64,000 nucleotides of DNA from Candidatus Latescibacterota bacterium (GCA_965204375.1 OZ241986.1:32001-96000), one strand, 5' to 3'; shown: positions 2,091 to 61,193, counted from the first letter of the stretch. Notes: generated by a model not told the origin, from the letters alone. Program-made: numbers and translations.

Positions 2091-2334
2091 AAACACCTTC
2101 TTCCCGTTTGTCATCACGCGCATTCAGAATACTCGAAGGTCGAACGCGGGTTCCCGTCGCTTTCTTGCGCTCGCGAACTCTTTGCAGCCACTCTTCAACT
2201 GAAGGTCGCGACGCGATTCGTTCCAACTCCTCGCGGAGAAATGCTTGCATAGACTGACGTTGGCGGGCAGCGCGGACAGCAAGTGCGTCGTGTACATCTT
2301 CTGGAACGTCTTCTATAGTGATTTGTACTGGCAT
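2071..2334 (-). CDS. FitA-like ribbon-helix-helix antitoxin (no cognate PIN toxin adjacent)
   Basis: QITIEDVPEDVHDALAVRAARQRQSMQAFLREEL is a typical FitA/Arc RHH pattern; the 3' end overlaps the NERD-kinase start by 20 bp. Confidence 0.75.
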   Translation of the reverse strand: MPVQITIEDVPEDVHDALAVRAARQRQSMQAFLREELERIASRPSVEEWLQRVRERKKATGTRVRPSSILNARDDKREEGVYESNSY

Positions 2335-2352
2335 GACGGTTTAGTCCTATGG

Positions 2353-3477
2353 TTATTTCGCCTTGTCCATTAATTTTGCAAACTCATCGAAGAGATAATC
2401 GGCATCGTGGGGACCGGCAGAGGCTTCGGGGTGGTATTGGACGGAGAAGGCGGGCAGTTCGCGGTGGCGCAGGCCCTCCAGGGTGTTGTCGTTGAGGTTG
2501 ATGTGGGTGAGCGCTACGACTTCCCGGTTGAGGGTGTTGAGATCGACGCAGAAACCGTGGTTTTGCGCGGTGATTTCGACTTTGCCCGTGTTGGCGTGCT
2601 GCACGGGCTGGTTGGCACCCCGGTGGCCAAATTTGAGTTTGTACGTTTTTCCCCCCAGCGCCAGGCCGAGGAGCTGATGCCCCAGGCATATTCCAAAGGT
2701 GGGGCGTTCGCGGATCAATTTGTGGATGTTTTCGACCGCATACGTCACGGGTTCTGGATCGCCCGGGCCGTTGGATAAAAATATGCCGTCGGGATCGATT
2801 TCGAGGAGTTGCTCTGCGGGTGTATCGGCGGGAAAAACAGTTACATCGCAGCCGCGGTCAACGAGGTAGCGCAAGATGTTGTGTTTGATGCCAAAGTCGT
2901 AAGCCGCCACGCGGTATCTGACGTTTTGTCGCAGGTGTCTGGTCTGACCGGTTTTGAGATCGCAAAGGCCCTCGGCCCAGTGGTAGGGTTCTGTGCAGGT
3001 GACGTTTTGCACGAGGTCGCGTCCGATCAGGCCGGGGAAGTCTCGCGCTTTTTGAACGAGGCTGTCGGAATCGAGATCGATGGTTGACAGTACGCCTTTC
3101 ATTGCGCCTTGACGGCGGATATGCCGCACGAGGGCGCGGGTGTCAATGCCCTCAATGCCGGGTATGTTGTGTTCTTTTAGAAAGTCGCCGAGGGCAATGG
3201 TCGATCGCCAATTGCTGGGGTATGGACAGTATTCTTTGACGATAAAGCCAGAGACCTGGGGTTTTTGCGATTCAAAGTCAGATGGGTTGATGCCGTAGTT
3301 GCCAATGAGTGGATAGGTCATGGTGACGATCTGGCTGTTATAAGACGGATCTGTGAGGATTTCCTGATATCCCGTCATGCTGGTGTTGAAGACAACTTCT
3401 CCTTCGCATTCGACTTCTGCGCCAAAGGATTTGCCTTTGAAAATGGTGCCGTCTTCCAATGCGAGAATCGCTTCCAT
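2353..3477 (-). CDS. carA: Carbamoyl-phosphate synthase small subunit
   Basis: [42 protein letters not shown] motifs. Confidence 0.98.
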
Positions 3478-3490
3478 GAATGTTGTTCCT

Positions 3491-4762
3491 TTATTGTTCG
3501 TACGTCACCTGACCACCCAGTATAGTCATTGTGGCCCGGCCTTTTAATGACCATCCGTGAAAGGGCGTGTTACGAGATTTGGATTTGAACTGATTGGCAT
3601 CTACAATCCATTCGAGATTGGGATTGATGACTGTAATATCGGCGGGTTTGCCAGGGGAGAGGCTCCCGCCTTCGATGCCGAGGATGCGCGCGGGTTCTAT
3701 GGTGAGTTTGGCAATTGTATCTGAAAGGGAGAGCAGGTTGGTGTGGACGAGTTTGGTGAAGATGATGCTGACAGCGGTTTCAAGGCCAAGGATACCATTG
3801 GGTGCGTTGGTAAATGCACCCAATTTTTCTTTTATCGTGTGTGGCGCGTGGTCTGTGGCGAGTGCGTCAATGGTGCCGTCCTGTAAGCCAGCGATCACGG
3901 CTTCTCGGTCTTCACTGGAACGCAGTGGCGGACTCATTTTGCCTGCTGTGCCGAGGATGCGCACGTCCTCATCGGTCAATGCGATGTGATGAGGAGAGGC
4001 TTCGCAGGTGACGGGCAGGCCCTCTGCTTTGGCTCTGCGCACGAGTTCGGCGGCGCGTTTGACGCTGAGGTGCAGGATATGGAGACGCCCCCGGGTTTGG
4101 CGCACGAGTTCGATGTCGCGCGCGTTCATGGCTGCTTCGCCTTCGGCGGGCATGCCTTTCAGGCCGAGTTCGCGGGAAACCGTGCCTTCGTGCATGTGCC
4201 CGCCGCGCGTGAGTTCAAAGACTTCGGAGTGGGGGTAAACCGCAAAATCGTTGGCGGCTGCGCGCTCCAAAAGTTGGCGCATCAGAGCTTCGGATTCAAT
4301 GGGGAGGCCGTCGTCGGAAAATCCAACAGCACCTGCTTTGAGCAGGGCATCGGTATCGGTGAGTTTTTCGCCCTGCATTTTTTGGGTTGCACAGGCGATG
4401 GGATACACGCGGGCATCTGCCGATTTTGCCTGTTGGACGATGTATTGGACAATTTCTGGGTTGTCTGTCGGCGGTTCTGTATTGGGTAGGCAGGCCATAG
4501 ATGTGAAGCCTCCGGCAGCAGCGGCTTCACATCCGGTTTTGATGGTTTCTTTTTCTGGAAAACCCGGATCGCGCAGGTGGACATGCATATCGATGAGGCC
4601 GGGTACGACGATTTGGCCCGAGACATCAATGGCTTTGGCACTTGCGACGATATGCGGTTCAATGCGCGCGATGTGACCGCGTTGTATGAGCAGATCGGCG
4701 ATTTCATCGCGGTTGTTAGCCGGGTCGAGGATGCGACCGTTTTTGAGCAGGAGATCGGACAT
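3491..4762 (-). CDS. pyrC: Dihydroorotase (multifunctional-complex type)
   Basis: [42 protein letters not shown]; adjacent to carA. Confidence 0.95.
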
Positions 4763-4786
4763 TAGAAAGGTTGTAAATATCCTCTC

Positions 4787-6088
4787 TCAATCTGCGAAAA
4801 CGGATTCGGGTACGCGGTCGCGGTAGGCTTCGATGGGCGGTAGATTGCCGTCGGCTTCGGTTTCGAGGGGGCGCAGCCCGGTCAGGATTTCGAGGTCGTC
4901 GCGGATGTCGGCCTGTGCCAGATAGGCTTCAGAGGCTTCGACTTCACCCAGGTCGAGTGTGTTGGGGATCCAGAGTACGCGGGCGTCTTCCGGCGCGATG
5001 AGGCCAACGGATTCGAGGGCGATGTCGAGGACTTCGGCGTCTGTGTCGCAGTGCAGCGGGACCGCCCCTGCTGAAACGTGTTGTCCGGTGATGACATTGG
5101 TATAGGTGGCGTGATAGTCGATTTTATCGACGAGACGCCTGGTGGCAAATTCGGCCATGCCGATGCCGGTGGCGTTGCCGTGCGTGGCTTCGGTGAGATC
5201 GCGCACAAAGATGCGCAAGACGCGCGGGGTTTCGTCGCCCATTGCGCGGCGGTCGTTGCGTTTGCGCCCGATGACGTTGGTGTCCATGCCCGAGCCGGAG
5301 ATGTTTTTGCCCATTTCGTCGATGATGAGCAGATCGACATCATCGAAGGGCAGTGAGGGACACCACTCTTTGGATTTGGCTTGCAGCACTTTTTCGCGTT
5401 CTTCAAAGTCTGCCGCGGGAATGGCTTCGATAAGTGCGGTTTCGTCATAGCCGTTTTCAAGGGTGGCTACGCCAAAGGTAATGGGCATTTCCTCGCGCAC
5501 GACTTGGCCGACTAAGCGCACGATTTTGTCAAAGGAATGGTGGATGATGGCGCGGTGATACACCGAGGCGCCTTTGTGTTTGCCCAGGCCTATGAGCATC
5601 ATTTTCATCAGTCCGCTTTCAATTTCGCCGGCAAATCCCGTATGTGGTTTGACGCGGTTGACCACAATGACGTGATCGGCTTCGGATGCGTGTTTGTCAA
5701 AGTAGATGGGCATGCCAAAATCCGATACGCCGATCTGGACGACGTCCATCGACGATTTGATTGGGCAACCCATTGTGCCTTCGGTGATGCCATATCCGGC
5801 CAGGACCTGGGTTTGTCCTTCGGCTGTGCCTCCGCCGTGCGATCCCATTGCGGGTACGATGTAGGGGACAGCGCCAATGGCTTTCATTTCTTCGACGATG
5901 GTTTTGATGATGGTGTCGATGTTGGCGACGCCGCGGCTGCCCGCGGTTATGGCGACGGTTTGACCGGGTTTGATCACAGAACTGGGATTGATTCTGGCGA
6001 TTTCATCGCGCACAGTGCCGGCGATGTCATCGACGCGAGGAGCGTCAAAGTGCTGACGAATGCGGAACATTTGCGGGTAAGTCGGCAT
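4787..6088 (-). CDS. Lactate-racemase N-terminal-like (DUF2088/LarA-like) protein
   Basis: AITAGSRG, PAMGSHGG, NRVKPHT, ESGLMKM, GKNISGSGMDTNVIGR. Confidence 0.75.
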   Translation of the reverse strand: MPTYPQMFRIRQHFDAPRVDDIAGTVRDEIARINPSSVIKPGQTVAITAGSRGVANIDTIIKTIVEEMKAIGAVPYIVPAMGSHGGGTAEGQTQVLAGYGITEGTMGCPIKSSMDVVQIGVSDFGMPIYFDKHASEADHVIVVNRVKPHTGFAGEIESGLMKMMLIGLGKHKGASVYHRAIIHHSFDKIVRLVGQVVREEMPITFGVATLENGYDETALIEAIPAADFEEREKVLQAKSKEWCPSLPFDDVDLLIIDEMGKNISGSGMDTNVIGRKRNDRRAMGDETPRVLRIFVRDLTEATHGNATGIGMAEFATRRLVDKIDYHATYTNVITGQHVSAGAVPLHCDTDAEVLDIALESVGLIAPEDARVLWIPNTLDLGEVEASEAYLAQADIRDDLEILTGLRPLETEADGNLPPIEAYRDRVPESVFAD

Positions 6089-50693: not shown

Positions 50694-51014
50694 ATGAATA
50701 AAAAAATAAAATCTGTTCTGGAGATATTGCGCCGTCAATTTGAGATATTTTATGGTGATCGACTGGCGCACATGGTGTTATTTGGTTCGCGTGCCCGCGG
50801 CGATGCAGAATCCGATTCAGATATTGATGTGCTTATTGTATTACACGGACATGTAGATGCAGTTGAGGAAATCAGACGAACCAGTGGGATTGTATCCAAT
50901 CTTTGTTTGGAATATGAAGTAGTAATCAGTTGTGTGTTCATGGATCTTTATCGCTATAAAAACAAACAAGGACCACTACTTCGGAATATACGCAAAGAGG
51001 GCGTTGCGTTATGA
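50694..51014 (+). CDS. Minimal nucleotidyltransferase (MNT antitoxin), no HEPN partner
   Basis: LFGSRARGDAESDSDIDVLIV; C-terminal PLLRNIRKEGV. Confidence 0.9.
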   Translation: MNKKIKSVLEILRRQFEIFYGDRLAHMVLFGSRARGDAESDSDIDVLIVLHGHVDAVEEIRRTSGIVSNLCLEYEVVISCVFMDLYRYKNKQGPLLRNIRKEGVAL

Positions 51015-52096: not shown

Positions 52097-52339
52097 CTAC
52101 GATTCCGCAGAGATCGATGCGGTATCGTACACTTTCCGTTTTTCACGCAATGGAAGGAGATCTGTACTCTCACACGTTATAAGGGCATAGGTGTAGCCAT
52201 CTTGAGCTACAAATTCTACTTCATAGCCATCATCAGGATGACATTCCACGACCGTGCCTATTTCGCCACGTACCAACTTGTGTTCCAACTTATCGTTTGT
52301 TAATGCCACCACATCCAATAGGCGAATATCATTTGTCAT
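52097..52339 (-). CDS. DUF4926-like small protein
   Basis: LLDVVAL...LVRGEIGTVVE...YEVEF...DG.TYAL. Confidence 0.85.
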   Translation of the reverse strand: MTNDIRLLDVVALTNDKLEHKLVRGEIGTVVECHPDDGYEVEFVAQDGYTYALITCESTDLLPLREKRKVYDTASISAES

Positions 52340-52341
52340 TC

Positions 52342-52683
52342 TTACCTCTCCTTCAAAGGGTAGCATGTGACAAGACGAGGATGTTGCTCGAGGGGTCTAA
52401 TATTCCAAACACTCCGGACCAGAGCTTGATGCCCTTGCCAATTCATCATAAAATTCAGTTCATAACGCTGTCCGTGAGCATCTTTTCTCCCCAATGTTGC
52501 CTCATGTGTGCGAACGACTTCAAGCAGAATATTACACAAAACTTCTGCATTTTCTTGTGTAATCCCAAATATAGAATCAAATAAACGCGCCTTATGACGA
52601 CCAACACGGTGCTGTGTGTTAAGCGTATAATCTCTAAGTTTCCTGATATCAATGAAGGCGTGTTCTGCGTTGGGTATAATCAC
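52342..52683 (-). CDS. DUF6883-like protein
   Basis: IPNAEHAFIDIRKLRDYTLN..H..GRHKARLF...VRSVW...PRLVTCY; GTG start assumed. Confidence 0.8.
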   Translation of the reverse strand: MIIPNAEHAFIDIRKLRDYTLNTQHRVGRHKARLFDSIFGITQENAEVLCNILLEVVRTHEATLGRKDAHGQRYELNFMMNWQGHQALVRSVWNIRPLEQHPRLVTCYPLKER

Positions 52684-52911
52684 TATTGGACCAAAACCGT
52701 TGAGTTTTGCAGAATCAAAAGGGATAAAAAATATACCACAATCACTATGGCTGGTCAATGTGGGACTTCATTAGAAGATGGTCTTTCGAGTTTGGATGGA
52801 CAATGGATGGGTGCTTTGAAAGGGCGATGGCTTTAAGAGATAGGTTGATAATCGAAAATGGCGTAAAGGAACAAAGGCCGCCAACTGTTCACTTTAATTG
52901 AAGGAGTCAAA

Positions 52912-54624
52912 ATGCTTCAGACTCAAAAAAGATTTTGTGATTATCTGGATAACGTAAAAACGGAATTGGGCAAAGCGAGGTCTTCGGGTTTGTTTGAGGA
53001 ACTCGAAAAAAACATCCATGCCTCGGAAGCGTTAAAACAGGATATTGCCGAGGCAGAGTTGATTGTGCCGGTGGTTGGAGCTTTTAGTGCTGGTAAAAGT
53101 ACGTTGATCAATTCTTTTTTAGGTTCTGGCCTTCTACCTGTGGACATAACTCCGGAAACAGCATTGGCAACGGAGTTGCGTTATTCCGAAAGTGAATATA
53201 TCGAGGCAATCAAGGCCGATGATGAGTCGGAACGTTACGACATCGCAGAGATTGAAGCGATCAATGAGAAGGCGAATCAATATCAATATGCAAAAGTCTT
53301 TCTCAATAGTGAACAACTCGAGGAGATTTTTCCATTGATTCTCGTGGATATGCCCGGTTTTGATTCTCCGCTGGATTTACATCACCGAGCTATTTTAACA
53401 TACCTATCCAGAGGAAGCCACTATGCGGTTCTGATCAGTGTAGAGGAAGGCACCATCACCCGCTCGGCCGAGCGGCAGTTGTCCGAGTTTTTCGAGTTTG
53501 ATAAGACGTTTTCCATCTTTCTGAGCAAGGCGAATCTGCGCTCGGATACTGAGGTTGGGGAGATTGCACAGAATATCGAGGAGCGGCTTGAGGACGATTT
53601 TGGTTTTGCCGATTCCGTTGTTCCCGTGGGCATGGATGGCGGCGATAGCCTTGACAAGATGCTCAAGACCATTGATCCAGAAGTGCTTTTCGGCAAGCTC
53701 TGGCGTCCCAATTTGGAGGCGTATTTTTTTAATCTCGATGGCAGTTTGAACACCCGGATCAGTTCTTTAAAAAAGAATCAAAAAGAAAACGAGGAGGCCA
53801 TTGAAAAACTCGCCTCGGGCCTTCAGGATTTAAAAGAAAAAAAGGAAGAGATGATTCAGGATATTCGGGATCGGTATTCCACAACCCATGTCAACGCCAT
53901 TGTAGAGGGGGTGGGCGCAGATCTGAGTGGTTCCGTAGAGGAATTGACACAAGTCGCTATTTCCAGTGGAGAAACTGCCTTGCAGCGAGAATTGTCGGAG
54001 ATTTGCCGTACCTCGCTTTTGAATAATGTGAAAGCCGAAATGGGGCGATTAAACGAACAGATTGTAGAAGACTTATCCAACAGCCTCAAAGGTATTGATC
54101 TTGTTTTCTCCTCTTACACAGATGAACACTGGTTGGAAAAAGTCGCGTCCAATGCGCCACAGCTTATTTCTAAAGGGAGCGCAATTCTTAAAAATGTTGG
54201 TCGTACTGCAAAAGGAGGACGGAATTTTTACCGAGCCATCACGACTATTGGAGCTATTACCACCAGTTTTGTGATACCCATAGTGGAACTTCTAATCGTA
54301 TTCCTTCCAGACATTTTTGGTTATTTCCAAAAACAGAGGCAAGAGGAGCAGATACGCAACCAGTTGCTGGGGACGGTTATCCCCTCCGTCAAAAGCAAAC
54401 TTCGCAGCGAACTTCCCGAATATTTCAATGAGCAAGTGAACCGTCTGATCAATGAGAACGCAGAGGCCCTTGATTTGCAAATCAAGGCCAAACAAAGCGA
54501 AATTGCCGAAGCCGAGAAGGCCAAACAGAACGAGATGCGAGATGTTGAGCAGACGATAGCCGAGCTGACTGATATTCAGGAGAACGTCCGATCACTGGCG
54601 AATCAAGGGATTTTCGCGCAATAA
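52912..54624 (+). CDS. Bacterial dynamin-like GTPase 1 with putative membrane paddle
   Basis: GAFSAGKS, PET, DMPG, SKAN; coiled coils; hydrophobic AITTSFVIPIVELLIVFLPDIF. Confidence 0.88.
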   Translation: MLQTQKRFCDYLDNVKTELGKARSSGLFEELEKNIHASEALKQDIAEAELIVPVVGAFSAGKSTLINSFLGSGLLPVDITPETALATELRYSESEYIEAIKADDESERYDIAEIEAINEKANQYQYAKVFLNSEQLEEIFPLILVDMPGFDSPLDLHHRAILTYLSRGSHYAVLISVEEGTITRSAERQLSEFFEFDKTFSIFLSKANLRSDTEVGEIAQNIEERLEDDFGFADSVVPVGMDGGDSLDKMLKTIDPEVLFGKLWRPNLEAYFFNLDGSLNTRISSLKKNQKENEEAIEKLASGLQDLKEKKEEMIQDIRDRYSTTHVNAIVEGVGADLSGSVEELTQVAISSGETALQRELSEICRTSLLNNVKAEMGRLNEQIVEDLSNSLKGIDLVFSSYTDEHWLEKVASNAPQLISKGSAILKNVGRTAKGGRNFYRAITTIGAITTSFVIPIVELLIVFLPDIFGYFQKQRQEEQIRNQLLGTVIPSVKSKLRSELPEYFNEQVNRLINENAEALDLQIKAKQSEIAEAEKAKQNEMRDVEQTIAELTDIQENVRSLANQGIFAQ

Positions 54625-54636
54625 GGAGAAGCGAAA

Positions 54637-56874
54637 ATGGAAACTACTGGAATTGTCGCATACCGGGAAAAGCTGGAGCAGGTCGTTGGAAGGTATCACG
54701 ACTTTCTCGGTGATGAAGCGGAGAGCCTCTGCCAAGAACACAGCGTTCCCACCGCAAGGGATTTACAGGCGCAGATGGCGTCCATTAAAAATGAGGAACG
54801 CTTACTGAAAATCGGCATTGTGGGGCGGGTCAAGTCGGGAAAATCCTCGTTGCTGAACGCCCTCGTCTTTGATGGGCAAAGTATTCTCCCCGAGGCGGCG
54901 ACCCCAATGACGGCGTCTTTGACGACCTTGTCTTATGGGGAACCGCTGTCGGCGGAAGTGGAATTTTTTACCCAAGAGGATTTAGCGGATATCAGGGACA
55001 AGGCCGAAGAATACGACAGGCAATTGGAGAGGCGCGTCAGAGAAATTCGGAACAAAGAAAAAAAAAGAAAAAGCCTATTTTCTCGAAGGAGTCGGCAAGA
55101 AAACAAGAGCCGATCTCGAAGAGACTCGGATGAACGGGTGCAACGCAGAGCCGAAAGAGAGATGCGCGAGAATATCGTACTCTCGTCCGCCCGCGATCAA
55201 TACAAAAAAATGATCGAGAGCGGAGTATCCCTTGAGAATTTGCCGGAAAATGTACTTCTGAAGTTTGGAAATCCTGCGGATTTACGCAGCCAGTTGAATG
55301 AATATGTCGGTGCGAAGGGTCAGTATATGCCTTTTACCAAAAGCGTCAATATTCGGTTGCCGCAGGAGAATCTCAAGGATATAGAAATTGTAGATACCCC
55401 GGGCATCAACGATCCGGTGCAGTCGCGGGAAGCGCGTACCCAAGAGCACTTGAATCAGTGCGATGTGGTGTTGGTCATCAGTCCTTCGGGGCAATTTATA
55501 AACCAGGTGGATCTGGAATTGATGGATCGCATCACCAGCAAGGAAGGCATCCATGAATTATTTGTGGTGGCTTCTCAAACGGATACCCAGCTTTTAGGCC
55601 ATTTGAAGGCCGAGAATAATGGACAGTTAGATCTCGTGTTGGATAGCCTTACCCGCGTGCTGGGGAACCAATTGGAAAAAGTGATCGCGGACCTAAAAGA
55701 GAGCTCTCCCGAAGTGGGAGATACTTATGATCAGTTGCTCGAAGGGCAAAGCAAGGTCATCCACTCTGCGGGGCTTTGCGAAAGCCTGAAGCAACGCTTC
55801 AGGCAAAAGGATGAGTGGAGCGAGGGGATGCAGCATGTTTGGGACAATTTGCAGACGGGGTATCCCGATTATTTTTCCGATACAGACGAGAATTTGTCGC
55901 GCTTCAACTTGGAAAAGCTGTCCAACATATCGACCATTCGGAATATCGTTGAGCAGGTGCGAGAGAAAAAGCAGGAAATTCTCGATAAGAGGATAGACAA
56001 CTATGTCCATGCAAAATACCAGTCCCTACATGCCTTGAGAAAGGGACTGCTCGCGTATGCCAACGAACGGCAGTCCCAAATTGAGAGCACGGATATTGCA
56101 AAATTCAAGGAACGGAGGAGAGGATTGACAAAGGCTCTCGACGATGCTTCGGAAGAGATAAAGGATGAGTACGAAGAATCGATCTATCTGATAAAAAAAT
56201 CCATGCGAGGTGAATTTAAGCGAGAATCAGAAGCACGCGAGCAGGCGTTAAAACGAAGGATCGAGAATGAGAAAGGAGAAGATAGTGAAACGTATGAAGA
56301 TGGTCTCATATTTAAGAAAACTCGCACCAGGACGTTTGCCACCATCCGCACAAATGCTGTCCATCGACGCTTATCGGAGTTTTCTGAAGAACTGAAAGAG
56401 GAGGTTGTGGATAAAACAGAGGATAAGAAGAAAGATTGGCGGAAGTATCTCAACCAGAATATGACCAAAATTTTAAGAAAACATTTTGGCGATGAGGATT
56501 TGGAAGCCTCCCTGATCAGCCGGGTAATCAGAGATACTGTTCACTCGATAAATATTCCAGCCTTTGAATACAAAAAACAAATTCCAGATTCCTTGAAATC
56601 CCAAGGTGTTTTGAAAGATGAGGAAGCGAAGAAATTTTTTGATGAATCCCGCGACTATGCTGATGATCTATGTAGAGGAACAAAAAAAGAGATAAGCGCG
56701 TACATAAAAGATCTCGCCAAAAGGATGGAGCAAGGGCATTTGTATGAGCGGTTGCTGGAACAATTCCAAAAAGAACTTGCCACACTTGAGAAATCCATTG
56801 CAAACAAGGAAATGGAGTTAAAAAGAATCAGCAATCTCAAGGGTGAGTTAGAAAAAATTGCGGAGATGAACTAA
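54637..56874 (+). CDS. Bacterial dynamin-like GTPase 2
   Basis: GRVKSGKS, TPMT, DTPGINDP; helical insert and long helical stalk. Confidence 0.88.
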   Translation: METTGIVAYREKLEQVVGRYHDFLGDEAESLCQEHSVPTARDLQAQMASIKNEERLLKIGIVGRVKSGKSSLLNALVFDGQSILPEAATPMTASLTTLSYGEPLSAEVEFFTQEDLADIRDKAEEYDRQLERRVREIRNKEKKRKSLFSRRSRQENKSRSRRDSDERVQRRAEREMRENIVLSSARDQYKKMIESGVSLENLPENVLLKFGNPADLRSQLNEYVGAKGQYMPFTKSVNIRLPQENLKDIEIVDTPGINDPVQSREARTQEHLNQCDVVLVISPSGQFINQVDLELMDRITSKEGIHELFVVASQTDTQLLGHLKAENNGQLDLVLDSLTRVLGNQLEKVIADLKESSPEVGDTYDQLLEGQSKVIHSAGLCESLKQRFRQKDEWSEGMQHVWDNLQTGYPDYFSDTDENLSRFNLEKLSNISTIRNIVEQVREKKQEILDKRIDNYVHAKYQSLHALRKGLLAYANERQSQIESTDIAKFKERRRGLTKALDDASEEIKDEYEESIYLIKKSMRGEFKRESEAREQALKRRIENEKGEDSETYEDGLIFKKTRTRTFATIRTNAVHRRLSEFSEELKEEVVDKTEDKKKDWRKYLNQNMTKILRKHFGDEDLEASLISRVIRDTVHSINIPAFEYKKQIPDSLKSQGVLKDEEAKKFFDESRDYADDLCRGTKKEISAYIKDLAKRMEQGHLYERLLEQFQKELATLEKSIANKEMELKRISNLKGELEKIAEMN

Positions 56875-59243
56875 TGTACCAGAAATTTATCCAGAAAGTG
56901 AACTCACTTTGGGAAACATTTGTAAGAAATCGATCAGTGTATAAAAAGCTGTTGAGTAAGGAACATGGTGAGTTGCTCTTAGAACAAGATGCCCTATCGA
57001 AAAGATATGAGCGAGTAAAAACCGAATTGGATGATACTCAAGGCAGTCTCAATAAGCTACGCGATGAACATAGTGGACTATCTCAAAAATACGCACTGGT
57101 CTCCGACCTGCTAACTGCCAAATCCAGTGAAAATGAAGCATTTGAGAAGTTTAAGGAACTTTTTGATGGGGAATTTATGGCCTTTGCCAATAAGGAGTCC
57201 TCACTGGCCGACGAAGCGGCGGCCGTGCAGCAGCTACAAACGCTGGAGAAGCGTTTAGAAAAGATTGTGGCATTCCCGCACACATTTACGAAGCGGTCCA
57301 TTGCCATCGGCGGTGGATTTAGCAGCGGCAAGTCGGCATTTGTCAATAGCTTTATCGAGCATCCCGACATTCAGCTTCCCGTGGGCATTCAGCCGGTTAC
57401 AGCCATTCCCTCGTATGTCATGGACGGTGTGGATGCTTCGATCAAGGGCTATTCCCGTACTGGGGGCACGATCGATATCCCTCCGGATTTCTACGTCCAA
57501 CTGTCCCATGATTTCATAGATACGCTTTCGTTTAATGTCAAGGACTTGATGCCTGAAATCGCCGTGGAAGTGCCGTTGCAGGCGGACTTGTTCGAGCATA
57601 TCTACCTGATCGACACGCCGGGCTACAACCCGGCTGGAGGGCAGACGAGTGAGGACGAGGCTACGTCGGCTGAATTTCTCAAGGATCGGGATGCTTTGAT
57701 CTGGATGATCGGTCTGGACGCGACGGGCACGGTGCCCGAGTCGGATTTGGATTTCATTGAAGGGTTGGAACTGAATGAGCTACCGTTTTATATGGTTTTG
57801 AACAAGGCAGACCTCAAATCCGAAAGCGACTTGACGGATATTGTAAAGGAGGTGTGGGACACGCTTGATGATGCAGGTATTGAGCCTGTGGGCATCAGTG
57901 CGTATAGCGCGACTCTGCGTAAGGAATACCTGTATAAAGGGACGGCACTGCATGATTTTTTTCGCAGCCAAAATCATTTTGTTGAAGACCAGGGGATTGA
58001 ATTAAAAAAGGAGATTGAAGACGTTTTTGAAAAGTACGAAAAGGCTATTGACGATGATGAGAAAACTGCCTATGAGCTGAGGAAAAAACTCAATACTCTC
58101 AATCTCGATATAAACGAACTGGGGGGTGATTCTGACGCTGTGGATGTCTTGCAAGAGAAAATTGACAAGATCAAAAACTCTCAAAACAAAAATTTTGTGC
58201 CGATCAAGGTAGAGATGAAAGAAATACAAACGAAGATGCTCAGAGCAGTGGATGAAATTTTTTGGTCGTTGAGTTCTCAGAGTGCCGAAGCTATGCCCCA
58301 GCCTTTGTCTACTCCAAAGCCAAACAGCAAGAAATCAACAGTGAGACGTCAAGGCTATATCAGGGGCGGAAAATACATCAAGACTGACGCCGAACAATCT
58401 GAAAAACCTGCCTTTGCAAACCCTCAGCCACACTTTGATTCATGTGATTTTGAAAAAAAGCCGAAGAAATCCAAACGAATTGGCGAGGTTGCACGCGAGT
58501 TTAATTTATCAAGTTCGACAATGCTCACGTTGCTCCGCAACCTCGGTTTTAAATCAAGAAGCCCCAGGTCTATCTGTACACAGGAAATGGTTGAGGCAGT
58601 TCAAAGAGAATTAGGTGCTGAACGCCAAAATAATAAAAAGAATACCGAAGCAACAAAACGAATTGGCGAGGTTGCACGCGAGTTTAATTTATCAAGTTCG
58701 ACAATGCTCACGTTGCTCCGCAACCTCGGTTTTAAATCAAGAAGCCCCAAGACTATCTGCACACAAGAAATGGTTGAGGCAGTTCAAAGAGAATTGGATA
58801 TTGAACGTCAAATCGCAAAGAAGAACACCGAAGCAGCATCACAAACGCAGGCATTGATCAACATCAATCAGGCAACAGCAAAAGAGCTTGAGCGTCTGCC
58901 AGGCATTGGTCCTGAAATTGCGAAGCGCATCGTGGCCTATCGCAAACAGAACGGGCTATTTCAACGTATTGACGATCTCATAAATATCCGAGGCATCAGC
59001 CTCAAAATGCTTAATGATATGATCAGCATCAATCAGGCAACAGCAAAAGAGCTTGAGCGTCTGCCAGGCATTGGTCCTGAAATTGCGAAGCGCATCGTGG
59101 CCTATCGCAAACAGAACGGGCTATTTCAACGTATTGACGATCTCATAAAAGTCCAGGGCATCAGCCTCAGAATACTTAATGATCTGCGTTCCAAATTAGA
59201 GTGGAATTTAATAGATGTTTTAAGGCAGGCGAAAAAGCAGTAG
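56874..59243 (+). CDS. Bacterial dynamin-like GTPase 3 with 2x IF2-N-like and 2x ComEA-type HhH C-terminal domains
   Basis: GGFSSGKS, PVT, DTPG, NKAD; TAATG overlap with gene 2; KRIGEVAREFNLSSSTMLTLLRNLGF twice; I.INQATAKELERLPGIGPEIAKRIVAYRKQNGLFQRIDDL twice. Confidence 0.88.
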   Translation: MYQKFIQKVNSLWETFVRNRSVYKKLLSKEHGELLLEQDALSKRYERVKTELDDTQGSLNKLRDEHSGLSQKYALVSDLLTAKSSENEAFEKFKELFDGEFMAFANKESSLADEAAAVQQLQTLEKRLEKIVAFPHTFTKRSIAIGGGFSSGKSAFVNSFIEHPDIQLPVGIQPVTAIPSYVMDGVDASIKGYSRTGGTIDIPPDFYVQLSHDFIDTLSFNVKDLMPEIAVEVPLQADLFEHIYLIDTPGYNPAGGQTSEDEATSAEFLKDRDALIWMIGLDATGTVPESDLDFIEGLELNELPFYMVLNKADLKSESDLTDIVKEVWDTLDDAGIEPVGISAYSATLRKEYLYKGTALHDFFRSQNHFVEDQGIELKKEIEDVFEKYEKAIDDDEKTAYELRKKLNTLNLDINELGGDSDAVDVLQEKIDKIKNSQNKNFVPIKVEMKEIQTKMLRAVDEIFWSLSSQSAEAMPQPLSTPKPNSKKSTVRRQGYIRGGKYIKTDAEQSEKPAFANPQPHFDSCDFEKKPKKSKRIGEVAREFNLSSSTMLTLLRNLGFKSRSPRSICTQEMVEAVQRELGAERQNNKKNTEATKRIGEVAREFNLSSSTMLTLLRNLGFKSRSPKTICTQEMVEAVQRELDIERQIAKKNTEAASQTQALININQATAKELERLPGIGPEIAKRIVAYRKQNGLFQRIDDLINIRGISLKMLNDMISINQATAKELERLPGIGPEIAKRIVAYRKQNGLFQRIDDLIKVQGISLRILNDLRSKLEWNLIDVLRQAKKQ
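58473..58835 (+). repeat. 183-bp in-frame tandem duplication (IF2-N-like unit)
   Basis: Units start at 58473 and 58656; first ~90 bp identical by eye. Confidence 0.92.
58855..59183 (+). repeat. 165-bp in-frame tandem duplication (HhH unit)
   Basis: Units start at 58855 and 59020; near-identical. Confidence 0.92.
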
Positions 59244-59545: not shown

Positions 59546-59618
59546 AAAAAGGTCATAAAGATGGATGCAAAACCAAAAAACCACAGGTCGTTCAGGCCGT
59601 GAAAAGGATACTTGCGTC

Positions 59619-61193
59619 ATGCGCTTTTTCAACACCGCTGGTCCAATCAAGCCCGAAAGGCACTACTGCATCCCGCCTTTGGAACGCTTAAATATGGACG
59701 AGGTGTTCGCACTCATCCGAGAAGAGAAATACTTTGTCTTGCACGCGCCGCGGCAGACGGGCAAGACTTCTGCCTTGTTGGCGTTGCGCGATTTACTCAA
59801 CGCTCAGGACACTTACCGTTGCGTTTATGTCAATGTCGAAGGTGGACAAGCCGCACGCGAAGATGTGGAACAGGTGACGCGCGCCTTTCTGGGTGAGTTG
59901 GCATCTCGGGCGCGTTCAGTGGGTGACGAATTTCTGGACGAGATCTGGTTCGACATCCTGGCGAAATACGGGGGCCATGTTGCCTTGCGCGAGGCGTTGA
60001 CGCGCTGGGCACAGGCTGCCCCAAAGCCATTGGTGCTGCTCATTGACGAGATCGATGCTCTGATCGGCGATTCTCTGCTGTCCGTGCTACGGCAGTTGCG
60101 GGCTGGCTATGACCTTCGCCCGGAGGGTTTTCCGCAGAGTGTGGTGCTGTGTGGGGTGCGCGACGTGCGCGATTACCGCATCCAATCCACTGCAGAGAAT
60201 GCGATCATCGCCGGTGGCAGTGCGTTTAATATCCGCGCCGAGTCCCTGCGTTTAGGGGATTTCTCACAGGACGAGGTATTCGATCTCATCGCACAGCACA
60301 CGGCAGAAACGGGACAGGCATTCACAGCCGAGGCCCTGGAGACGATCTGGACGCAGACCCAGGGACAACCGTGGCTGGTCAACGCATTGGCTTATGAAGC
60401 TGGCTTTAAAAACAAGACCGGGCGGGATCGCAGCCAGCCCATTACGGACAACGCAATATGTGACGCACGGGAGCAACTCATCTTGCGCCGAGAGATACAC
60501 CTCGACCAGTTGGCCGATAAGTTGCAGGAAGAACGCGTACAGCGCGTGATTGAACCGCTGCTGAGTGGGGCTGAGGAACGTCGCTTTATTGACCGCGACC
60601 TGGAGTATGTACGCGATCTCGGTCTTGTGGCTCAAGATCTGCCGTACCGCATTGCCAATCCGATCTACGCCGAAGTCGTGCCGCGCGAACTGACGTGGGT
60701 GTTACAGGGGGAGTTTGAGCAGGAAACAGCCTGGTATATCAATGCTGATGGTAGTCTGAATGTGGTCAAACTGATGACCGAGTTTCAGATCTTTTTCCGC
60801 GAACACTCAGAGCACTGGGTGAGACGATTTCAATATCAGGAAGCCGGTCCGCAGTTGTTGTTGCAGGCATTTCTCCAGCGCATTGTAAACAGCGGTGGAC
60901 GCATTGAAAGGGAGTATGGTTTGGGGCGTGGACGCACAGACCTGCTGATTGTCTGGCCGCAGGGCGATGTGACGCGCAAGATTGTGATTGAGTGCAAAAT
61001 TCTCCACAAGAGCCTGGATCAGACCATTGCCGAGGGTTTGGAACAGACGGCGGAGTACATGGATCGTTGCGATGCAGAGGCAGGTCATCTGGTGATTTTT
61101 GACCGCCGTGAAGGGAGGCGTTGGGCGGACAAAGTATTCCGCAATAGTCGGACATCAAGTAGCGGGGTCGAGATTGAGGTGTGGGGAATGTGA
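59619..61193 (+). CDS. AAA-family ATPase with C-terminal PD-(D/E)XK nuclease-like domain
   Basis: MRFFNTAGP start, HAPRQTGKTS, LLIDEID, GQPWLVN; EREYGLGRGRTDLLI...IVIECK. Confidence 0.85.
   Translation: MRFFNTAGPIKPERHYCIPPLERLNMDEVFALIREEKYFVLHAPRQTGKTSALLALRDLLNAQDTYRCVYVNVEGGQAAREDVEQVTRAFLGELASRARSVGDEFLDEIWFDILAKYGGHVALREALTRWAQAAPKPLVLLIDEIDALIGDSLLSVLRQLRAGYDLRPEGFPQSVVLCGVRDVRDYRIQSTAENAIIAGGSAFNIRAESLRLGDFSQDEVFDLIAQHTAETGQAFTAEALETIWTQTQGQPWLVNALAYEAGFKNKTGRDRSQPITDNAICDAREQLILRREIHLDQLADKLQEERVQRVIEPLLSGAEERRFIDRDLEYVRDLGLVAQDLPYRIANPIYAEVVPRELTWVLQGEFEQETAWYINADGSLNVVKLMTEFQIFFREHSEHWVRRFQYQEAGPQLLLQAFLQRIVNSGGRIEREYGLGRGRTDLLIVWPQGDVTRKIVIECKILHKSLDQTIAEGLEQTAEYMDRCDAEAGHLVIFDRREGRRWADKVFRNSRTSSSGVEIEVWGM

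Follow-up and report, generated by a model that had tools for sequence, protein, structure and literature searches.

An operon of three dynamin-like GTPase genes was analysed in DNA of a Candidatus Latescibacterota bacterium (GCA_965204375.1 OZ241986.1:32001-96000). The whole stretch, called the window below, is 64,000 nucleotides (nt) long, and positions are counted from its first letter. The operon occupies positions 52912 to 59243, and all its features lie on the plus strand. Gene g1 (52912..54624) encodes a dynamin-like GTPase of 570 amino acids (aa), the presumed membrane-anchoring subunit, g2 (54637..56874) a large dynamin-like GTPase of 745 aa without a membrane paddle, and g3 (56874..59243) a third protein of 789 aa. 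As read directly from the sequence, g1 and g2 are separated by a 12-nt spacer with GGAG inside (54625..54636), and g3 starts within the g2 stop codon (CTAATG). All three proteins exceed the Pfam Dynamin_N cut-off of 27 bits, with scores of 69.8, 77.5 and 34.5 bits for g1, g2 and g3, respectively. The original prediction, made without database searches, described three tightly coupled dynamin-like GTPases with a 12-bp gap and a stop/start overlap, and the open reading frames (ORFs), the Dynamin_N matches and the junctions are all as described. The operon of three tightly coupled dynamin-like GTPase genes is real and better than chance, and the larger module family behind it is apparently undescribed.

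The g3 protein is composed of three parts. The core (residues 1-470, 56874..58283) contains a long N-terminal helix, the GTPase domain and a helical bundle. A low-complexity linker (residues 471-528, 58284..58457), recognised by its pLDDT in an AlphaFold2 model, carries the motif RRQGYIRGGKYIKTD. The tail features two tandem IF2_N-like units of 183 nt each (58473..58838), identified with Pfam IF2_N and a DNA repeat comparison, followed by two tandem ComEA-type helix-hairpin-helix (HhH) units of 165 nt each (58855..59184), identified with HHH_3, TIGR00426 and the ComEA entries of the PDB.

The elements of dynamin-superfamily GTPases (G1, the switch-I threonine, G3 and a G4 element) are present in g1, g2 and g3. 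The g1 residues G56..K62-S63 (P-loop), T83, D146-P148-G149 and K206 are at least 95% conserved among 64 orthologues, and the same level of conservation was found among 66 orthologues of g2 for G63..G68-K69-S70, T89/T92, D253-T254-P255-G256 and D316. Among 100 homologues of g3, residues G152, K153, T176, D247, P249 and G250 are invariant, and K311-A312-D313 is at least 90% conserved. The canonical NKAD form of the G4 element occurs in g3 only, with SKAN in g1 and SQTD in g2. The Dynamin_N match of g2 comprises 253 residues over 165 profile positions; the GTPase domain of this protein holds a highly charged, non-conserved segment of ~70 residues (about 120-185), and there is no conserved column between D115 and Q188. 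The same genome possesses a further Dynamin_N gene (L108, G000:C1:588440-589132; a 721-aa frame, 75.7 bits), so the three-gene operon is not its sole dynamin locus.

A clear hydrophobic paddle had been expected in the first dynamin only, and hydropathy agrees with this both in the three proteins and in their orthologues. The paddle-like hydrophobic segment of g1 (residues 442-473, 54235..54330) reaches a KD19 maximum of 2.23, versus 0.99 in g2 and 0.94 in g3, and neither of the latter contains such a segment. A segment with KD19 of at least 1.6 is present in 57 of 64 g1 orthologues, versus 1 of 66 for g2 and 3 of 74 for g3. Its relative position in g1 is 0.75-0.81, two outliers apart, among the five lowest and five highest values. 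Hence, a conserved hydrophobic segment is a feature of g1, and none was found by hydropathy in g2 or g3.

No solved chain was matched by the g3 core in a sequence search of the PDB. The AlphaFold2 model of g3, to which the fold evidence is confined, was built from 100 homologues and has a mean pLDDT of 83.5. Most 10-residue blocks of residues 1-470 have a pLDDT above 90, with values of 78-81 in three N-terminal blocks and a few dips to 74-88. The top Foldseek matches of the model were truncated mitofusin-1 (5yew; E 2.4e-11, TM 0.43 by target length), the Campylobacter jejuni dynamin-like proteins (DLPs) Cj-DLP1/2, IniA, BDLP and EHD. The Foldseek probability was 1.00 for mitofusin-1, IniA, BDLP and the Cj-DLPs, in accordance with a helical bundle in g3, and sequence identity to these fold relatives is 13-20%. 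On the strength of the model and the Foldseek placement, the g3 core is predicted to be a "mini-mitofusin", with a GTPase domain, a helical bundle and a long N-terminal helix and without trunk or paddle. Like mitofusin and BDLP, g3 has a mitofusin-class core; unlike them, it has no transmembrane or paddle region, and the linker and soluble binding domains stand in its place. The linker, with predicted disorder across residues 481-531, has a pLDDT below 50 at residues 481-493 and 505-531 and a small beta-hairpin predicted at 494-503. The motif RRQGYIRGGKYIKTD in this hairpin also occurs in the HhH/IF2_N-tailed relatives P0004, P0009, P0029, P0132 and P0233 and may be a docking motif.

The two IF2-N-like and two ComEA-type HhH units foreseen at the end of g3 were both matched in Pfam, with 41.1 bits over two stretches for IF2_N (cut-off 25.3) and 131.1 bits over two stretches for HHH_3 (cut-off 27). 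Single IF2_N units are borderline in the genome scan (25.7 and 24.3 bits), but the units also match genuine IF2 proteins directly, which secures their homology. The IF2_N units match 21 proteins of 433-1381 aa, of which five belong to the g3 family and 16 are genuine IF2s (42-53% identity). Among shorter proteins, the IF2_N-bearing matches are all fragments of g3 homologues and the remaining matches are ComEA-like. The IF2_N units align with the extreme N-terminus of the IF2 encoded by the genome itself, at 51-53% identity over 55 aa. The HhH units share 68% (53 aa) and 59% (71 aa) identity with the genome's ComEA-like protein, reach 104 bits against TIGR00426, the ComEA HhH repeat (cut-off 53.1), and match the PDB ComEA entries 8dss and 8dfk with E about 1e-10. 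The full-length comEA model TIGR01259 is not reached by g3 (124.8 bits vs a cut-off of 152.35). Thus, the HhH units resemble the ComEA-type (HhH)2 domain; unlike ComEA, g3 has no N-terminal anchor, and the units stand at the C-terminus of a cytoplasmic GTPase of 789 aa. Similarly, both IF2_N units jointly pass the family cut-off as IF2 N1 does, whereas no IF-2 family GTPase or C-terminal domain was found in g3 with Pfam, and the N1 units are detached from the translation factor and duplicated. Neither an export signal nor a hydrophobic segment was found in g3 by hydropathy.

Concerning the origin of these domains, which had been called captured, it is plausible that the tail units were captured from IF2 and ComEA, because outside the g3 family they match only genuine IF2s and ComEA-like proteins. 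The donor need not be this particular lineage, since the identity to the genome's own IF2 (51-53%) equals that to the best other IF2s (42-53%). The genuine IF2 is encoded elsewhere in the genome beside nusA and itself bears two IF2_N units. The NusA gene (451 aa; L002 1696-3051, minus strand) lies directly upstream of infB, and the C-terminal end of the protein is an HhH-like domain. A predicted complex of this NusA (residues 200-451) with the IF2_N units of g3 obtained a score of 0.01, which counts neither for nor against an interaction.

The tail units are tandem duplications, of 183 nt for IF2_N (58473-58655 and 58656-58838, 91% identical in DNA) and of 165 nt for HhH (58855-59019 and 59020-59184, 95% identical). 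An assembly artefact was considered, and the duplications are not one, because contigs from X1, X4 and X6 show them. Contigs of run X1 span both unit junctions (IF2_N and HhH) with 0 differences, and two further studies contribute an X4 contig, which covers both IF2_N units, and an X6 contig, in which two IF2_N units are accompanied by a single HhH unit. A 1+1 form in one X3 contig may reflect a genuine variant or a collapsed repeat. The copy number varies among relatives, with one IF2_N and two HhH units in P0004, 1+1 in P0009 and P0029 and 2+1 in the fragment P0124; P0006 aligns with 94% of the two-unit query (80% identity).

The distribution of the module was studied in 40 genomes and the window's own, 21 of them of the same genus and 20 others of the order. 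A close orthologue of the g3 core was found in just 3 of the 21 genomes of the genus (the window's own, G011 and G017) and was absent from the 20 genomes sampled elsewhere in the order; G004 holds a distant homologue (35% identity). The operon is hence accessory in the genus, and not core and invariant. The three genes also occur in G017, where they overlap by 4 nt and lie in different flanks, and the g3 of this genome (L028 7995-11561) contains three HhH units, no IF2_N and an extra N-terminal coiled coil of ~420 aa. In G011, two DDE transposase genes lie between g1 and g2 (L027 about 2200-4975 / L025 12118-14327), and this insertion may have inactivated or uncoupled the operon. The GC-content is 0.41-0.50 within the operon of the window and 0.52-0.56 in the flanks.

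No related loci were returned when a single protein served as the query, but a scan based on an alignment, run over one genome of each species, returned 80. In 67 of these, g1, g2 and g3 are collinear on one strand (tblastn, E up to 1e-20). Most of the remaining 13 are cut by a contig end, while L031 and L034 are without g1 and L075 without g2 despite 8 kb of flank. The hosts include Latescibacterota, Desulfobacteraceae, Campylobacter, Helicobacter (including H. pylori), Sulfurovum, Arcobacter, Pseudomonas, Neisseria, Thiothrix, Marinobacter, Fibrobacter, spirochaetes (Treponema), Bacteroidales and Phycisphaerae, and the named loci of identical architecture are metagenome-assembled genomes of Latescibacterota. 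The g3 family comprises 413 clusters at 50% identity (E up to 1e-30). The module is carried on two megaplasmids of P. aeruginosa; the locus on pPAG5, annotated merely as "dynamin family protein", adjoins integrases and a transposase. An H. pylori island with three DLP genes, grouped by five of 50 compared strains, is described in the accessible text of PMC8935386. The three-gene dynamin module is widespread, horizontally mobile and accessory.

The tails of g3 are variable. Among the 80 loci, 48 g3 tails of at least 50 aa were present, of which 15 short or open-ended ones were dropped and 33 were scanned. Ankyrin repeats were found in nine tails (one also with an FGE-sulfatase domain), FGE-sulfatase alone in five, all from Fibrobacter, double zinc ribbons in three, HHH_3 in two and EF-Tu domain 2 in one; two tails gave sub-threshold matches and 11 matched no family. 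About 30 loci are tailless, and the g3 proteins of Pseudomonas have N-terminal extensions of 150-220 aa. A second g3-like GTPase occurs in some loci (L069, L087, L098, L100), as a fusion or as an additional gene in tandem, so that the g3 subunit itself has been duplicated; in L069 (7833-10490) the second copy is fused behind the first and has a Dynamin_N score of 21.9 bits, below the cut-off.

Tail labels were assigned to 194 sequences, namely the 120 top-scoring database matches and 74 ORFs from the loci, that of the window among them, with some duplicates. They comprise 88 none/unknown, 66 ankyrin, 16 HhH, seven HhH plus IF2_N, six FGE-sulfatase, five EF-Tu domain 2, four ankyrin plus FGE-sulfatase and two zinc ribbon. 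These are seven tail classes besides none/unknown, and they interleave on the tree of the cores. In a FastTree phylogeny of 192 cores, the labels need 22 changes, versus a minimum of 7 and a shuffled mean of 88.4. The HhH plus IF2_N class accounts for six changes, at least four of them forced by starred branches, and ankyrin for seven, at least six of them forced. The g3 of the window and P0004 are sister to an ankyrin-tailed clade; the database sample in this tree is skewed to the window's clade. The interleaving of tail labels indicates repeated tail exchange: the g3 C-terminus has been swapped repeatedly between closely related cores, as the idea of a swappable C-terminal module had it.

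The genomic context was inspected in 36 diverse loci, using the two nearest ORFs per side (139 proteins; PADLOC, E up to 1e-8). A WYL-domain regulator adjoins 10 of the 36 loci, eight times directly upstream and co-directional, once upstream and divergent and once downstream; WYL regulators are generally rare, and this number probably exceeds chance by far. Known defence proteins are located near eight loci and include BrxL with PglZ (BREX), a type I methyltransferase, SspE/HEC-06-like with SspH, NERD-helicases at three loci, E1-E2 and a BrxH-like helicase. XRE/CapH-type regulators were found near three loci. Several matches were left out of the defence count. PADLOC matches to TRIP13/IetA beside three Latescibacterota loci were not counted because the one at L030, rechecked in Pfam, is a proteasomal-type AAA ATPase; SbcB-like, TnpB/Cas12f-like and weak RT-protease matches were also omitted.

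Among solved structures, the best sequence match of g2 is 5owv_A (Campylobacter DLP1, E 1.5e-10) and that of g1 is 5owv_C (Campylobacter DLP2, E 1.4e-8), each covering parts of the protein only. The C. jejuni DLP1/DLP2 pair (5OWV/5OXF) is likewise encoded by adjacent genes for two different BDLP-class dynamins, with g2 closest in sequence to DLP1 and g1 to DLP2, and the g3 model also aligns to chains of both. Hence, g1 and g2 appear to resemble distantly this membrane-tethering pair. The module would act in the manner of other bacterial dynamins that occur in pairs, with its third GTPase and modular tail as additions. The likeness is weak and partial, however; the Campylobacter system has two genes without a third GTPase or a variable tail, and the role proposed in the PDB entry titles is membrane tethering, not defence.

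The Eleos and LeoABC systems share with the module the organisation of several dynamin-like GTPases in operons within islands beside defence systems. As given in the available text of 10.1101/2022.05.11.491447, P-loop mutations abolish defence by Eleos, and the dynamin system of Millman et al. consists of two genes, the first of them sometimes split, and confers protection against jumbo phages. LeoABC represents one full DLP and one DLP split in two, whereas the window encodes three distinct full GTPases; Eleos/LeoABC has two dynamin genes, whereas here three stand in fixed order (67 of 80 loci), the third with a modular tail. A check with DefenseFinder/PADLOC-type models had been proposed, and the module fails those of Eleos and LeoA. 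The scores against NCBIfam LeoA/HP0731 (NF041922) and the DynA equivalog (NF052648) are 20.9 bits vs a cut-off of 325 and 21.6 bits vs a cut-off of 1600, respectively. Judged by its models, therefore, the module is not Eleos/LeoABC.

Tandem DLP genes are the rule according to Michie et al., in the portion of PMC4159319 available. The H. pylori island shares three DLP genes with the module, and the H. pylori loci L102, L103, L105 and L106 have the g1-g2-g3 order; they are possibly, not certainly, the same locus. In contrast to the reading proposed here, the island is treated in the accessible parts of PMC8935386 as a putative pathogenicity island with a LeoA-like idea of toxin release, and those parts describe no module, tail variability or defence context. 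The E. coli operons of dynamin, RdcB and phospholipase were considered and set aside as a different system (PMC12922286, in the text available). No account of a dynamin fused to HhH/ComEA or IF2_N domains was found in the literature, although supplements may hold one. Nor was the three-gene module found described as a defence system; Millman Table S5 and the supplements of WYL surveys may list it. With supplements outside the literature search, this agrees with the initial statement that no description of the architecture was known.

Distribution and context suggest that an anti-phage or anti-plasmid role is the most likely biological function, because the distribution is patchy, the tails were swapped repeatedly and WYL regulators and defence genes neighbour the module in other phyla. 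We favour a defensive role with a nucleic-acid-targeting tail, at a probability of about 0.55. In this scheme, g1 and g2 would form a membrane-bound motor, g3 would join them, probably via its G domain or helical bundle, and the g3 tail would pick the target to which the machine is brought. The tail encoded in the window would be a nucleic-acid- or nucleoid-targeting module. ComEA-type HhH domains bind double-stranded DNA (dsDNA) without sequence preference, and the two (HhH)2 units of g3 would be expected to bind it in the same way. For the two IF2 N1 copies, possible ligands are nucleic acid and, by analogy with E. coli IF2, NusA on DNA that is being transcribed. According to the available text of PMC12297416, E. 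coli IF2 contacts the KH2-AR1 part of NusA through its Domain I, to which N1 belongs, and this domain is found at the nucleoid; because of this the likely partner of the IF2_N units shifts away from the ribosome. Since HhH domains bind dsDNA and IF2 N1 binds NusA at the nucleoid, the tail may bring the machine to DNA, possibly transcribed DNA. GTP-driven tethering, sealing or remodelling of the membrane would in this way be coupled to DNA, and the most plausible target is the DNA of an invader, or its transcription complexes, at the membrane. For the FGE-sulfatase (FGS) domains that are present on other g3 tails, direct binding of invader molecules has been proposed in NTPase conflict systems (PMC7159879, in the accessible part).

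Several observations weigh against this reading. A defence role was plausible by virtue of the WYL, BREX, Ssp, restriction-modification and NERD-helicase neighbours in other phyla, but the six Latescibacterota loci have housekeeping flanks, and near the window's operon only small toxin-antitoxin-like genes and an MNT-type gene are of note. A WYL or known defence gene lies within two ORFs of 13 of the 36 loci, as a raw count, and neither is found at the other 23, including all six of Latescibacterota. Among PADLOC models, g1 matches LeoA/LeoBC weakly (27.8-31 bits), and g2 and g3 match none. No homologue of the g3 core was found in the phage collection. The FastTree phylogeny of the cores carries local support only, and its none/unknown label includes truncated proteins. 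DNA binding by the tail and contact among g1, g2 and g3 are steps that we infer.

The housekeeping surroundings of the Latescibacterota loci would fit a non-immune physiological machine, in which the dynamins serve in repair or remodelling of the cytoplasmic membrane and the g3 tail does no more than position the complex, in this case at the nucleoid or DNA. Its tasks could be DNA-membrane tethering, formation of DNA-packaging vesicles or surveillance of envelope stress as with B. subtilis DynA. The BDLP/mitofusin-class fold, the conserved paddle of g1 and the presence of another dynamin-like gene elsewhere in the genome point the same way, and the available texts link DynA (PMC8844932) and LeoA (PMC4159319) to membrane surveillance and vesicles. 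We nevertheless consider this explanation unlikely: a housekeeping function fits poorly with presence in 3 of 21 genomes of the genus, and it leaves unexplained the plasmid carriage, the genomic island (PMC8935386, as accessible), the repeated tail swaps and the WYL or defence neighbours in 13 of 36 loci. A use of the module against an animal host, with the eukaryote-like ankyrin-tailed relatives as symbiosis factors and the HhH/IF2_N form as a side branch, appears very improbable. Ankyrin tails do prevail in the nearest clade (66 of the 194 sequences labelled), but neither an export signal nor a hydrophobic segment was found in g3, every part appears to reside in the cytoplasm or at the inner membrane, and tailless or differently tailed forms of the module occur in Pseudomonas, Fibrobacter, Treponema, Campylobacter and others.

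The original prediction also left room for a decoy, in which host targets would have been copied into g3 as the IF2_N and HhH units, which would trap or report phage factors directed against translation initiation (or IF2-NusA coupling) and DNA-uptake proteins. The similarity of the units to the genome's own IF2 N-terminus (51-53%) and ComEA-like protein (59-68%) agrees with copying from host proteins, as does the fact that the IF2_N units match just five g3-family proteins and 16 genuine IF2s in the range of 433-1381 aa. However, the identity to the genome's own IF2 is no higher than that to the best other IF2s (42-53%), and plain nucleic-acid binding accounts for the same data. ComEA normally acts outside the cytoplasm, which would make it an odd cytoplasmic decoy. 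We know of no phage factor that targets IF2 N1 or ComEA, and this too speaks against a decoy, although decoy domains have been proposed to recur among NTPase conflict systems (PMC7159879, in the part available). On balance, a decoy function seems quite doubtful.

A bolder version of the favoured defensive reading can be put forward only tentatively, with the odds against it. Three-dynamin operons would then constitute a new and widespread class of prokaryotic immune machine, often WYL-regulated, with the swappable g3 tail as the specificity determinant. The tail of the window would consist of copies of the host's own IF2 N1 and ComEA HhH domains and would bring the membrane motor to incoming DNA or NusA-bound transcription complexes, as a direct sensor or an integrated decoy.

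Bacterial dynamins are still poorly understood. To our knowledge, Eleos is the only established dynamin phage defence, and we are aware of no mechanism for it. With interchangeable binding domains in place of the membrane tip of one subunit, the module provides a testable handle on target choice. The swapping of g3 tails parallels that of sensor domains in STAND/Avs and other conflict systems, and targeting by the tail recalls the recognition of viral structures by Mx dynamins. The IF2-N1 fusion in g3 was the sole non-IF2 setting of this domain returned by length-limited, word-based searches, so it could help to reveal what the enigmatic domain binds. The three-gene module deserves experiments.

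In promoter and terminator scans, no excess over shuffles was obtained (10 vs 10.4 and 7 vs 7.8, respectively). The flanks of the operon had been expected to hold toxin-antitoxin-like genes and an AAA-nuclease. The former are present, together with the MNT-type gene. The gene downstream of g3 (59565-61193, plus strand) encodes a 542-aa ATPase with AAA_22/AAA_35, in which no nuclease domain was detected; it is not found with the operon in G011 or G017, so that part of the expectation did not hold. Some related clusters of this ATPase in the protein atlas carry PDDEXK_3. Upstream and divergent from g1, the overlapping genes for DUF4926 (89 aa, 72.5 bits) and DUF6883 (138 aa, 101.8 bits) at 52097-52758 on the minus strand look like a toxin-antitoxin-like pair, and the plus-strand ORFs listed across this interval are probably spurious. 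Further upstream, an MNT-type nucleotidyltransferase (NTP_transf_2; 50694-51014, plus strand) matches the PADLOC candidate family PDC-S09 with 129 bits, and no HEPN partner of this gene was identified. A beta-lactamase-fold ORF overlaps the end of the MNT gene, and an SMC gene is also found in the neighbourhood within the window.

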